Shown: positions 1,270-6,494 of the stretch, piece after piece
Layout: each line of letters starts with the position of its first letter
Numbering within the stretch: the first letter of the stretch is position 1
Virus record (IMG/VR): IMGVR_UViG_2740892372_000012
From: a virus
Taxonomy: Duplodnaviria > Heunggongvirae > Uroviricota > Caudoviricetes
Length of the DNA stretch: 6,494 bases
Strand: one strand, 5' to 3'
Made by a program: the position numbers and the translations under genes
Notes under the pieces: generated by a model
Database searches by the model: none
What the model saw: the letters and a program-made list of their open reading frames with translations, nothing else
What the model was told of the DNA's origin: nothing

Positions 1270-1425
1270 TTACTCCTCAGGTTCGTAAGCTGTGAAGACA
1301 GCGACCTCCGTCTGGCCGGTTCGGATTCGTACCTCGCAGAGGTCTTTCCTCGTTACCAGTGCCGTCACTATGACGGTTAAACAGATGACGATCAGGGCGA
1401 TTAACATCGCCTTTTGCTGCTTCAT
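1270..1425 (-). CDS. hokD: Hok/Gef family type I toxin (51 aa, small membrane toxin)
   Basis: Translation MKQQKAMLIALIVICLTVIVTALVTRKDLCEVRIRTGQTEVAVFTAYEPEE matches the Hok/Gef family signature (hydrophobic helix, conserved Cys, C-terminal YE motif) and, from memory, the E. coli HokD/RelF sequence. AAGGAG SD 9 nt upstream of ATG 1423-1425. The ORF track lists a 70-aa in-frame extension from ATG 1480-1482, which has its own GAGG SD 8 nt upstream. Confidence 0.88.
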   Translation of the reverse strand: MKQQKAMLIALIVICLTVIVTALVTRKDLCEVRIRTGQTEVAVFTAYEPEE

Positions 1426-1546
1426 AGCCTGCTTCTCCTTGCCTTTCGGCACGTAAGAGGCTAACCTAGATTTGCCGTTCATAGATTGAGCCTCAGATTA
1501 ATGTTAAGCGTCTTGCAGGACGCGTAATGTTAACTGGGGCTTTTCT

Positions 1547-1582
1547 CTATCTGCCGTTGGTGTTCATGCCCGAGGCAGATAG
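1547..1582 (-). other. Inverted repeat (9-bp stem, 18-nt loop) in the region upstream of hok; possible leader RNA structure
   Basis: Plus 1547-1555 ctatctgcc is the exact reverse complement of 1574-1582 ggcagatag. Hok-family mRNAs are known to carry structured regulatory elements, but the role here is inference. Confidence 0.3.
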
Positions 1583-2029
1583 CCTCAAGCACCCGCAGCT
1601 ATTCTACTTAACTTCCCATTACCTCGCCAATATGAAATCGGTCAGAAAGACAGACGTCCCATAAGGACAACAACGGAAAAAGAGATTTTGCTTGATGCTA
1701 TTTACCTCTGCACCATGAAGTTGCGCCAAAATCCCAGTGGTGATAACAGGAATTTGGTTGTTGGTGATTGGGGAAAGAAGTACGTTAGACTGTGGGTTAG
1801 TTCATTGACATGATAGTTACCTGCCTTCAATTTCCTAAGCAAGCGATGTAAACGATAATCAATATCAAATGTATTGACAGGTAAAATAATAACGATGTAC
1901 CTTTGCTGATAACATATATCAGTCTTAAATCATAATGGAGGTAGATAAAATAACTAAACACACACAACAAATTTTTTATCAGTGACATAGCATATCTTAA
2001 GCATCCTTTAATGCTCATGGGGAGAACGC

Positions 2030-4375: not shown

Positions 4376-5122
4376 TTACTTCACAACCCTCATATTGCTG
4401 ACATTTGGACGCCAGCTATCCCAGTTAAACGTCACCCATCGACCACCGTTCATGGTCATGCGGTCCATAATCCTCTCACCAAGAAGCGTACTCATTGCGG
4501 CATGATTCAGGTTTGTTAACATCCCGACACTGCACAGTGATGCTGTCCGGCGATCAATTATCTGGTGTAATACCACCTGCTCGTTTTTCGTCTCCCGCTG
4601 AACGCCTATTTCATCCAGGACCAGCAAATCAACACTGCAAAGCTCCTGTAAAAATTTTTCCCCGGATTTGCCGTTGTCGTAGCTGTCATGCAACACGCTC
4701 ATGACATCAGACACGGTGACGATAATCACGCTGCGCCCCTTCGCCATCAGCCGGTTACCCATCGCCGCTGCAAGGTGATTTTTCCCGGTGCCGGTTTTAC
4801 CGCTGAACACAAAATTCGTGCACCCGGTCATCAGTTCGTCAGCTATGGATTTGGCCTGGCTCAGCGCGTATTTTTGCCCGTCGTTCTGCACCTGATAATT
4901 CGCAAACGAGCATTTGCTGTGCAGAGGCTGGATGCCCGAACGATTCAGGATTTTTTCCACCCGCAACTGGTGATTCTGGCGGTTAATCTCCTCGCTGCGT
5001 TTTCGTCCTTCAGCAAGTTGCCATTCCCGCCACTCCTCCACCGTCCGGTACGGTGGAACCGACGCCGGTGGTGCAAGTCTGCGAATACGTTCAAGAACCC
5101 CGGCTGCCGCAATGTTTTTCAT
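4376..5122 (-). CDS. DnaC-like replicative helicase loader (AAA+ ATPase), prophage paralog of DnaC
   Basis: 248-aa ORF with Walker A FVFSGKTGTGKNHLAAAM and Walker B DLLVLDEIG, colinear over its full length with recalled E. coli DnaC (RSGIxPLH, CSFxNY, GMLTN, LLGERxMDRM, FNWDSWR). ATG 5120-5122 lies 6 nt after the initiator stop, with GGGGGTGA upstream (translational coupling). Confidence 0.9.
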   Translation of the reverse strand: MKNIAAAGVLERIRRLAPPASVPPYRTVEEWREWQLAEGRKRSEEINRQNHQLRVEKILNRSGIQPLHSKCSFANYQVQNDGQKYALSQAKSIADELMTGCTNFVFSGKTGTGKNHLAAAMGNRLMAKGRSVIIVTVSDVMSVLHDSYDNGKSGEKFLQELCSVDLLVLDEIGVQRETKNEQVVLHQIIDRRTASLCSVGMLTNLNHAAMSTLLGERIMDRMTMNGGRWVTFNWDSWRPNVSNMRVVK

Positions 5123-5128
5123 GCCACA

Positions 5129-6223
5129 TCACCCCCTGAATCCCGGCGGAATTTCGGTATCCGGTTCAGAAATATGATTCACACAACGCTGGTTGTTCGT
5201 GCCGCTTACCGGGAGCAACCAGGGGTTTTCAAAATTCCGGTCCGGCCCAAAAAACGTCGTCGCTCGCTGAACAAATTCCGTTCCCGCTTTCCCGGTCGCC
5301 GCCAGGTATCTCGCGTAACGCCTCACACCATCCAGCATGGTCTCTGGTGGCACCCCCTCGCGCAATCTGGCCTTCCAGGCACTGAATGCGGATTTCTTCG
5401 GGTTTGCTCCGGCACGCAACGGGTACTCCCGCCAGACCTGTTCGAACACATCCGGATAATCCACTCGTCCCACAGACAGCCCGGTGTTTTCCGGGACTAC
5501 CCGATCGGCTTCCCGCTGAATGGCGGAATCGGCTTCAGGCTGCTGCAGTTGGTGTGATTGCTTCGGCCTTGCGGTCATCACCTGCTGCACAGCGCCCGAA
5601 TCGGCTTTCAGCGCATACGCTGAATCGGCTTCCGGTGTCGTGCCTGCTGGCTGACCAGGATTGACGGTCTGAACATCCCCTGCCTGGTTCGTGGCGTTTT
5701 TTACGCCATGGACCATAGTGTTTTGATCTTCTTGATCTGTATCTTTATCTGTATCTTTATCTGTATCTTTATCTGTATCTTTATCTGTCGTGACTCGTCG
5801 TGACATGTGCATGACATTTCGTGACGCGCCGTGACAATCGCCATTTTGTTCCCGCTTTCTTTCCCTCTCTCGCTGCGCCCTCTTGCGCTCTGCAGGAGAT
5901 TTTGCGGTTTGCGAAATATTGCCGTTGTCCTCTTTAAGCACCTGGCGTTTTTCCCATCCAGTGATTAAATCACCATCAAGTACCCGCCCCTGCATCGTCT
6001 GCAAAATTGAATCAATTACCTCTTCTGTCACGTCGAGCGCACTTGCCAAATCTTCTGTCGTGACATCAATGTGACCTCGCGTGACATTTCGTGACGCGCT
6101 CACCAGGAGGTGGATATACACTGCCATCACTGTTGCAATTGGCTGCCCTGACACCCTGGCAATTGTTCGCCACTTAGGGTCATTTGGCATGTCATGCCAT
6201 AATCTGAGCCAGGCGTTAGCCAT
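5129..6223 (-). CDS. Phage replication initiation protein: N-terminal DNA-binding (replisome-organizer-like) domain, (DKDT)n linker, C-terminal DnaT-like (primosomal protein I-like) domain
   Basis: C-terminus ...NHISEPDTEIPPGFRG matches the recalled C-terminus of E. coli DnaT (...SEPDSQIPPGFRG). Gene order DnaT-like then DnaC-like mirrors the host dnaTC operon. Start taken as ATG 6221-6223 (GAGG SD, 5-nt spacer) rather than the GTG at 6229 used in the ORF track. Stop TGA 5129-5131. Confidence 0.85.
   Translation of the reverse strand: MANAWLRLWHDMPNDPKWRTIARVSGQPIATVMAVYIHLLVSASRNVTRGHIDVTTEDLASALDVTEEVIDSILQTMQGRVLDGDLITGWEKRQVLKEDNGNISQTAKSPAERKRAQRERERKREQNGDCHGASRNVMHMSRRVTTDKDTDKDTDKDTDKDTDQEDQNTMVHGVKNATNQAGDVQTVNPGQPAGTTPEADSAYALKADSGAVQQVMTARPKQSHQLQQPEADSAIQREADRVVPENTGLSVGRVDYPDVFEQVWREYPLRAGANPKKSAFSAWKARLREGVPPETMLDGVRRYARYLAATGKAGTEFVQRATTFFGPDRNFENPWLLPVSGTNNQRCVNHISEPDTEIPPGFRG
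5735..5788. repeat. Perfect tandem repeat, 12-nt unit atctttatctgt x4 plus a partial copy, in frame inside the initiator gene (encodes DKDT repeats)
   Basis: Plus 5741-5788 is four exact copies of atctttatctgt, preceded by a partial unit at 5735-5740. The region is AT-rich, with two GATC sites just upstream (5724-5727, 5734-5737). Confidence 0.9.
5788..5835. repeat. Cluster of five phased (G/A)TGAC direct repeats at about 10-bp spacing (putative iterons, cluster 1)
   Basis: tcGTGAC at 5788-5794, 5798-5804, 5819-5825; gcATGAC at 5809-5815; ccGTGAC at 5829-5835. Spacing 10/11/10/10 bp, about one helical turn. The motif falls in different codon phases of the overlapping initiator ORF, so it is conserved at the DNA level, not the peptide level. 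Confidence 0.6.
6058..6095. repeat. Second cluster of four phased GTGAC direct repeats (putative iterons, cluster 2)
   Basis: GTGAC at 6060-6064, 6071-6075, 6081-6085, 6091-6095. The 18-mer tgacatttcgtgacgcgc is identical at 5812-5829 and 6082-6099, and both clusters are preceded by the same ctgtcgtgac 10-mer (5785-5794, 6055-6064). Confidence 0.6.
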
Positions 6224-6488
6224 ACTCACCTCTTCTGATACCGAATCTTTTTACTCACGAGTTGCCGGAAGCGATTCGATATGGCTATTATCACTCAATG
6301 CACTGCCACAGCATTTCCTGCCGGGCCACCACGGTTCATCTGATTGAAACCGGCGATTGCCACTGCGACAAAATCATCAGCGTCTCTCACCAGTCGCTCC
6401 CGCGTCTCCACCAGCTCCCGAAAATAAGCTGAACTGAACCGCCCCGGGAATCCTGGAGACTAAACTTCCTGAGAAAGAGGTAAACAGG
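6224..6488. promoter_or_regulatory. Divergent intergenic control region between the leftward replication operon and a rightward gene starting at 6489
   Basis: No convincing ORF on either strand over about 265 bp. Plus-strand AAGAGG (6475-6480) followed 8 nt later by ATG 6489, with the gene running off the window. Candidate minus-strand -10 GATAAT (complement of 6287-6292) upstream of the initiator. Promoter elements are not confidently resolved. Confidence 0.35.
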
Positions 6489-6494
6489 ATGACT

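Follow-up and report, generated by a model that had tools for sequence, protein, structure and literature searches.

A length-variable in-frame repeat as the likely unwinding element of a lambda-style origin inside a prophage initiator gene

The stretch of DNA analysed here, 6,494 nt of the IMG/VR virus record IMGVR_UViG_2740892372_000012 (Caudoviricetes; hereafter the window), carries on its minus strand a prophage replication initiator gene (5129..6223, 364 aa), the middle of which contains a 12-nt tandem repeat read in frame as a run of Asp-Lys-Asp-Thr (DKDT) residues. Our analysis of this region makes it likely that an AT-rich tract including the repeat (5716-5788) is the DNA-unwinding element of a lambda-style replication origin located inside the initiator gene. 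The first-pass annotation of the sequence had described the repeat mainly as a protein linker of variable length, adding that it may also act at the DNA level; this emphasis should probably be reversed, the DNA role being primary and the DKDT peptide its by-product. What is directly established is the anatomy of the region, its conservation, its codon bias, its length polymorphism and its parallel with phage lambda.

Tandem Repeats Finder (TRF) delimited the period-12 array at 5730-5788, with 4.9 copies of the consensus TCTTTATCTGTA, 97% matches and a score of 111, and a second repeat search returned the same register. The perfect portion covers 54 nt (5735-5788, 4.5 units) and includes an exact period-12 self-match of 42 nt from position 5735; 1000 dinucleotide-preserving shuffles of the window gave exact periodic runs of at most 14 nt for periods of 4 to 30. 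The minus strand of the array reads GAT AAA GAT ACA four times and then GAT, and is translated as DKDTDKDTDKDTDKDTD, i.e. (DKDT)4D, at approximately residues 145-163 of the initiator. The coding strand of the repeat unit, as read off the sequence, is 75% purine, and GC content over the array falls to 0.28, compared with about 0.55-0.6 in the flanks. A full-text literature search for the repeat unit, its rotations and 'DKDTDKDT' returned unrelated papers only.

The repeat belongs to an ordered set of elements, given here by position with no strand assigned. The complete candidate unwinding element (5716-5788, GC 0.28-0.33) is AT-rich, asymmetric in purines and pyrimidines, and composed of the repeat plus GATCAAGAAGATCAAAAC (minus-strand sense). 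In the coding sense, the repeat begins directly after the last of a series of iterons (...GAGTCACGACA|GATAAAGATACA...) and is followed by 18 further AT-rich bases containing two GATC sites (5725 and 5734), and then by a GC-rich inverted repeat. The abutting iterons, which we call cluster B (5789..5836), are five direct GTGAC repeats (GTCACG on the coding strand) at 5790, 5800, 5811, 5821 and 5831, with spacings of 10, 11, 10 and 10 bp, and encode CHGASRNVMHMSRRVTT; the copy at 5811 is degenerate (ATGAC) in the window and reads CGTGAC in most relatives. The 12-nt repeat and its GTGAC and GATC neighbours, all pointed out in the first-pass annotation, were each recovered by TRF or position scans. 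A second group of iterons, cluster A (6054..6096), lies about 270 nt upstream of cluster B in the coding sense and comprises four direct GTGAC repeats (6060, 6071, 6081 and 6091) phased in the same way, at 10-11 bp, with one inverted copy nearby (6027-6031). A 21-nt match links the two clusters (5809-5829 and 6079-6099, 95% identical). The mid-gene iterons and the repeat together span nt 389-490 of the 1095-nt gene, within the segment that encodes the interdomain part of the protein.

The least stable 40-mer of the initiator gene falls within the tract (nearest-neighbour dG -41.4, mean -57.1, z 3.6, GC 0.23), and both single strands of the tract are essentially structure-free according to DNA folding. 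Elsewhere in the window three 40-mers are less stable than the tract, all in a low-GC island around a hydrolase gene (~1900-2950); this island would prevail in a window-wide competition for superhelical melting, a competition with no bearing on local opening driven by the initiator. On the side away from the iterons the tract is bounded by the inverted repeat (5685..5715), GGTCCA-TGGCGT-AAAAA-ACGCCA-CGAACC, with a core TGGCGT-AAAAA-ACGCCA and an A5 loop, which as DNA folds into a hairpin or cruciform of -8.7 and -10.9 kcal/mol (z -4.1 and -5.2). Its candidate roles are a cruciform boundary of the origin, a single-strand loading signal or an antisense terminator. The GATC end of the tract resembles the oriC 13-mer GATCTnTTnTTTT at about 9 of 11 specified positions, a likeness judged by eye and offered as a lead only. 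A promoter scan of 5400-6300 gave two promoter-like sites for 0.9 expected, one overlapping the iterons and none within the repeat, and a promoter role for the repeat was accordingly dropped.

Comparison across lineages was based on the window and nine homologues fetched as DNA, down to about 46% protein identity. Two iteron clusters with 10-11-bp phasing, 183-251 nt apart, were found in eight of the ten lineages, namely the window and the seven that share its N-terminal domain; this arrangement suggests looping or wrapping of the intervening DNA. The sequence of the iterons is specific to the lineage, GTCACG in some and GTAACG(C) in others, and organizers with an unrelated N-terminal domain carry unrelated 11-12-nt repeats at the mid-gene site. 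In nine of the ten lineages, the tract after the mid-gene iterons holds the 48-nt segment of lowest GC in the whole gene. In one lineage (L015) the peptide encoded over the tract is IRKEEIRKEDKELKD and not D[KT]n, and the DNA still has a GC content of 0.21 and is internally repeated; what is conserved is thus a property of the DNA and not the peptide. The region has the composition of a lambda-style origin: its elements lie inside the open reading frame (ORF), in the interdomain segment, at least three phased iterons co-vary with the lineage, and the least stable tract comes after the last iteron. In some relatives, cluster A holds two extra iterons, which add a 7-residue insertion, TCHGVS(R/L), to the protein.

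Codon usage points in the same direction. In seven lineages of less than 90% nucleotide identity, Asp is encoded by GAT in 36/36 cases inside the run, Lys by AAA in 21/21 and Thr by ACA in 11/11; outside the run, in the same genes, these codons account for 67%, 65% and 19%, respectively. These counts are not fully independent because the units of an array are copies of one another. The DKDT peptide would be largely a by-product, since an AT-rich tract placed in a coding linker must be read as hydrophilic residues with AT-rich codons (Asp, Lys, Thr). The idea of an unwinding element, a secondary remark in the first-pass annotation, is supported by the abutment of the AT-rich tract on the iterons in nine of ten lineages, by the exclusive use of the AT-richest codons, by the different peptide of L015 and by the lambda layout described below.

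The product of the gene is named 'phage replisome organizer' by NCBI. The ORF extends over 5129..6229 on the minus strand (366 aa), with a likely ATG start at 6223 that gives the 364-aa protein. It matches PHROG 3729 ('replication initiation protein') from end to end (E 4e-251), and more weakly PHROGs 4880 and 5968, which are labelled 'replisome organizer' (E 2e-8 and 7e-7). When the 366-aa ORF was scanned against Pfam, no family reached E <= 0.01, Phage_rep_O and PF17948 included, and NCBIfam gave no match to a replisome-organizer model; PF17948 does occur in a sister group of organizers whose C-terminal module is another one. In an AlphaFold2 model based on 27 homologues, residues 1-78 form a moderately confident helical region, except for a loop at 46-52 that is encoded by cluster A and has low confidence, while residues 110-126 form a basic helix and residues 254-340 a second folded region. 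Residues 127-253, which contain the repeat, are of low confidence, so that the DKDT run probably lies in a long, predicted disordered linker of about 125 residues between domains. This agrees with the earlier description of a linker of variable length between two domains, here the folded parts 1-78 and 254-340. A Foldseek search of the PDB with the full model returned nothing significant, the best matches (E > 1) being winged-helix regulators and sigma factors.

The first-pass annotation had also named the C-terminal domain as DnaT-like, and this label holds in part. The last ~25 residues of the initiator, SGTNNQRCVNHISEPDTEIPPGFRG (...QRCVNHISEPDTEIPPGFRG; window 5129-5203, minus strand), match the extreme C-terminus of the DnaT of E. 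coli and Salmonella (PDB chains 6aep, 2ru8 and 9zbt, E 0.002-0.008), and the NCBIfam DnaT model scores 18 bits against a cutoff of 201 (E 0.0016) over the last 24 residues only. Pfam, NCBIfam and PDB searches detected neither the DnaT N-terminal domain nor its three-helix single-stranded DNA-binding domain in the initiator, and the label as a whole finds no Pfam DnaT match and no Foldseek match behind it. Conceivably, the tail is a small recruitment motif borrowed from the restart primosome of the host. A 2026 paper on the DnaT preprimosome makes no statement about the extreme C-terminal tail. The homologue of phage Evi is annotated 'Primosomal protein I'.

Directly downstream of the initiator gene is a gene for a DnaC-like helicase-loader ATPase (4376..5122, minus strand), assigned to Pfam IstB_IS21 (E 4e-19) and Bac_DnaA, to PHROG 50 and, in NCBIfam, to PRK12377 (509 bits) and the DnaC equivalog (E 6e-89). 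In intact relatives the initiator is preceded upstream by genes for a CI-like repressor, a Cro/YdaS-like protein and a YdaT-like protein. With the loader downstream and CI/Cro/YdaT-type genes upstream in intact relatives, this is the replication module of a lambdoid prophage.

A mechanism can be proposed from these elements. The N-terminal domain of the organizer would bind the phased GTCACG iterons, five of them abutting the repeat and four located ~270 nt upstream, and the resulting nucleoprotein complex would strain the adjacent (GATAAA/GATACA)n tract, of low stability and free of structure, until it melts. The C-terminal domain, with its DnaT-like tail, would then bring in DnaB through the phage DnaC-like loader or, in relatives without a phage loader, through the DnaC of the host. 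The GC-rich inverted repeat would mark the far edge of the melted zone, and the length of the tract would drift freely around its usual two units by in-frame slippage.

Length variation of the repeat was followed with a 351-nt query around it, searched against 5426 complete E. coli genomes. The region has matches in 2076 of these, and 1645 cover at least 80% of the query; carrier genomes have up to four copies of the initiator region, with a median of one. Many genomes hold two to four copies of the module, which raises the matter of cross-talk between co-resident origins. When the flanks are fully aligned, matches fall into seven discrete spans, which were counted in two samples, the top 60 matches listed and 47 full-length matches in an evenly spaced sample of genomes. 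Spans of 363, 351 and 345 nt account for 2, 6 and 15 of the top 60 matches listed and for 0/47, 1/47 and 0/47 of the evenly spaced sample; the 339-nt span accounts for at least 37 of the top 60 matches listed and 2/47 of the even sample, in which spans of 333 and 321 nt occur once each (1/47) and that of 327 nt dominates (42/47). Eleven loci that were fetched have identical flanks around 2, 3, 4 or 5 whole units, and half-unit (TCTGTA) gains and losses occur among them at differing positions of the array.

Close relatives in IMG/VR (80 loci, of which 77 could be parsed) tell the same story, with 2 units in 64 loci, 3 units in 7, 4 units in 2, 5.5 units in one and half-unit alleles (1.5 or 2.5) in 3. 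Protein representatives include 1-unit forms, and 7/7 sequenced phage genomes carrying the initiator gene have the 2-unit length. The usual state is thus two units, and alleles range from about 1 to 5.5 units in steps of 6 or 12 nt. Every length change observed is a multiple of 6 nt, which leaves the reading frame intact throughout, and since the repeat is a perfect 12-nt (6+6) tandem array it slips during replication; the anticipated slippage with preservation of the frame is supported by this allelic series of whole and half units. The repeat is therefore an in-frame coding variable number tandem repeat (VNTR), with perfect units, a unit length that is a multiple of 3 and length polymorphism between identical flanks. 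No zero-unit allele was seen except in P0018, a 302-aa form on a 5.1-Mb chromosome, where an in-frame deletion removes the mid-gene iterons and the hairpin together with the repeat. In another form (P0016) the iteron-plus-repeat segment is duplicated.

The closest genomes give an idea of the rate. The whole window aligns to RM9872 and eleven other complete O145 genomes with 99.8% identity across 6482 nt. Compared base by base with RM9872, it differs by one single-nucleotide polymorphism (SNP, position 265) and one 12-nt unit (4 against 3) and by nothing else. With one SNP and one unit in 6.5 kb between the window and these twelve genomes, the change in the repeat must be recent, and the repeat keeps pace with or outruns all point mutation over the 6.5 kb taken together. 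The copy-number comparison among homologous prophages that the first-pass annotation had proposed thus shows polymorphism, with the window itself one unit away from its nearest genomes. Strains of O145:H28 carry two related prophages with the same iterons and differing repeat number, the copies of RM9872 having 3 and 4 units; the second prophage carries 4 units in two strains (RM12581 and RM13514) and 5 in two others (RM12761 and RM13516), and 13 further sites distinguish the organizer gene of RM12581 from that of RM12761.

Several points weigh against the origin reading. Alleles range from about 1 to 5.5 units, and with tract length so variable no particular length can be critical. Where the N-terminal domain of the organizer is unrelated, the corresponding junction is occupied by (EQ)n with a GC content of 0.40-0.50, and in one lineage (L022) the lowest-GC segment lies elsewhere in the gene; AT-richness is thus not universal, and a constraint at the level of the protein or of recombination may act too. 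Codon uniformity could come partly from slippage, which homogenises units, and not from selection, and the tract may also serve as a recombination joint. Literature searches on this replication module gave only work on lambda, on the O protein of Stx phages and on SPP1. Finally, the element of this window is probably not in use. Upstream of the initiator (6295-6494) the cro/ydaT control region is missing, replaced by a truncated gene for a Rha-family regulator (~6295-6435, minus strand) and an IS3-family element whose transposase starts at the ATG at 6489 (plus strand), both mapped from the RM9872 annotation, so that the prophage is cryptic here. As it has decayed, the change from 3 to 4 units most likely reflects neutral slippage in an origin that is out of use.

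Part of this would also be expected of a neutral microsatellite in a disordered linker, with no role as DNA and AT-rich only by the chance of the unit that was amplified. Copy number varies widely with no evident constraint, the expansion of the window sits in a cryptic prophage, a segment predicted to be disordered should tolerate changes of length, and homogenisation by slippage could explain the uniform codons. Chance amplification fits poorly, however, with an AT-rich tract that abuts the iterons in lineages of 46-58% protein identity having other iterons, one of them with another peptide, or with exclusive AT-richest codons in seven lineages in which only 19% of the Thr codons outside the run are ACA. 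The architecture recurs in lambda, and the only zero-unit allele, P0018, has lost its iterons and hairpin as well. We regard the neutral explanation as unlikely, although it fares best among the alternatives.

Copy number may affect function. The repeat could behave as a rheostat, slippage tuning either the melting of the origin or the reach of the linker and thereby adjusting prophage replication after induction; in a variant, it would adjust cross-talk between co-resident prophages that share iterons. We give these two possibilities, taken jointly, a small chance of being correct. If the rheostat were real, the repeat would be a contingency locus acting on replication and not on gene expression.

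Selection might instead act on the protein, the (DK/DT)n run serving as a charged and flexible spacer that sets the reach from the N-terminal domain to the helicase-recruiting C-terminal domain. A predicted disordered linker fits such a role, as does the acidic dipeptide repeat (EQ)n, of GC 0.40-0.50 and so not particularly AT-rich, which organizers of unrelated N-terminal domain have at that junction. But the 4-12 residues involved are a small change in a linker of ~125, L015 keeps the AT-rich DNA and not the peptide, and an invariant choice among synonymous codons is not predicted by selection at the protein level, which leaves this explanation with little likelihood.

The tract also coincides with a boundary between modules. 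Homology between organizer types breaks off precisely where the D[KT] run ends, and the same N-terminal domain, iterons and DKDT run are joined to three C-terminal modules, NTMVHG..., ELNPTHNAR... and LKTDPPLNPP.... The ELNPTHNAR... module is Pfam DnaT and is paired with a lambda-P-like loader; loader and C-terminal module seem to be swapped as one. The tract could accordingly be a microhomology joint, a crossover point between N-terminal-domain-plus-iteron modules and loader-specific C-terminal modules. As the whole explanation this is very unlikely, since it leaves unaccounted for both the abutment of tract and iterons and the lowest stability in the gene; moreover, it is compatible with the tract being an unwinding element, as the module boundary of lambda is also at its origin.

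In many relatives, as in the E. coli genomes L004, L005, L006, L009, L010 and L011, the initiator is directly followed by a DUF977 gene with no DnaC-like loader between them, and this loaderless arrangement includes the common 2-unit form. Two organizers whose N-terminal domain (MRDYAKVSPRFW...) is unrelated to that of the window have a (QE/QD)n dipeptide repeat (L021, 1978-2019; L022, 2014-2037), followed by the same NT(M/L)VHGEK hairpin-coding segment. By sequence comparison, a low-complexity acidic repeat at this module boundary is recurrent. A profile search of genome contigs with a mixed alignment returned only two loci, the pattern deriving from the C-terminal domain.

A hairpin follows the tract in other lineages as well (L014, z -5.3; L017, z -2.4; L019, of different sequence, z -7.5). 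Across 13 distinct variants of the hairpin, 83% of cells pair, compared with 22-38% when partners are slid; L017 and L242 are one column off register in the 3' arm of this alignment, so that pairing is understated for both rows. Three pairs change on both sides, for example the loop-closing A-T to T-A, at the cost of E-to-V and I-to-N replacements in the protein. The hairpin is stable and conserved and scores in a consensus scan as terminator-like on the plus strand, with a 13-pair stem and a T-rich tail, but shuffled sequences yield as many such sites (mean 1.0), the replication genes have neither a promoter nor a gene on the plus strand upstream of it, and its tail (TAGTGTTTTGATCTTC...) is interrupted without a clean T-run, so that a terminator stopping antisense transcription into the origin or the initiator gene is a most improbable account.

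If the tract is indeed an unwinding element, its general design is a textbook one for lambdoid phages: an origin inside the initiator gene, iterons followed by an AT-rich tract, and repeats read as protein. What would be new is the assignment of an origin to a very common and apparently uncharacterised family of E. coli prophage initiators, the arrangement of short phased iterons in two clusters, and an AT-rich part made of a fast-evolving in-frame repeat; literature searches found no paper on this origin, on two-cluster iterons or on a fast-evolving AT-rich repeat. The assignment provides a map for a widespread class of E. coli prophages, including those of pathogenic O145, O103, O111 and O157 strains; the module is also present in sequenced temperate phages. 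The assignment would also offer a clean example of a DNA-level function shaping a protein sequence. In practice, the repeat could be used as a marker for fine-scale typing, with one unit changed for one SNP per 6.5 kb, and is a likely source of length differences between assemblies.

Other genes of the window concern the prophage more generally. A hokD-type gene of the Hok/Gef toxin family (1270-1425, minus strand; Pfam HOK_GEF, E 3e-23) and a match to the sok antitoxin RNA (1420-1594, minus strand; Rfam RF01794, 107 bits) constitute a predicted type I toxin-antitoxin module of the prophage. On the plus strand, 2030-2803 encodes a 257-aa alpha/beta-hydrolase or esterase-like protein (weak match to Pfam Esterase; 'alpha/beta hydrolase' in RM9872). 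This gene, on the opposite strand, lies in the low-GC island ~1900-2950, where the DNA is less stable than anywhere else in the window; the related RM12581 prophage lacks the island, which looks like a moron insertion.

Lambda is the closest of the known systems, and its gene O was taken through the same analysis as a positive control. Lambdoid origins consist of iterons and an AT-rich tract in the middle of gene O (PMC7466680), and in the analysis of lambda O the four annotated iterons (39034-39118) ran directly into a purine-biased, AT-rich tract coding for DTKDTITKEKRKDY. The 40-mer of lowest stability begins at nt 437 in lambda O and at nt 440 in the gene studied here, with a GC content of 0.23 in both. 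In lambda, as proposed here, the origin is situated in the middle of the initiator gene, between the N-terminal DNA-binding part and the C-terminal loader-recruiting part, and the order is the same, iterons, then an AT-rich tract of ~40 nt with D/T/K-rich residues, then an inverted repeat. The P0018 deletion resembles the classical in-frame ori-minus deletions of lambda. The two systems differ in several respects: by the empty Pfam scan, the present initiator is no homologue of lambda O; its iterons are direct 6-7-bp repeats at 10-11-bp spacing, in contrast to the 18-bp units of lambda; a second iteron cluster lies within the region coding for the N-terminal domain; the partner is DnaC-like, in contrast to lambda P; and the AT-rich tract is a perfect tandem repeat of variable copy number.

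The Stx phages 933W and P27 have six iterons instead of four, and the two extra iterons add 13 amino acids to the protein (PMC7466680). The number of origin repeats is thus read through as extra initiator residues in these phages, as it is here in some relatives, where two extra iterons of cluster A add 7. Whereas Stx phages vary their iterons, in the present family the AT-rich tract varies too, and much faster, between otherwise identical prophages.

In the Bacillus phage SPP1, oriL lies inside gene 38, with repeated boxes beside an AT-rich region. Its origin-binding organizer G38P, which hands over to a separate helicase loader (PMC5615212), shares with the present initiator the name replisome organizer, given by NCBI as 'phage replisome organizer', and the organizer-to-loader handover proposed here. 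SPP1 differs in its Gram-positive host, its own helicase and its other repeat architecture, and the initiator of the window gave no significant match to a replisome-organizer model in Pfam or NCBIfam. With DnaT, the initiator shares the extreme C-terminal ~25 residues only.

As in VNTR and contingency-type loci, the repeat is short and perfect, has a unit length divisible by 3 and varies in length between very close relatives; unlike them, it does not switch a gene on and off by frameshift, it has no known phenotype, and it lies in a candidate replication origin and not in a gene for a surface protein. Among these systems the initiator appears to work like lambda O, yet without being a member of the lambda O family (Phage_rep_O).

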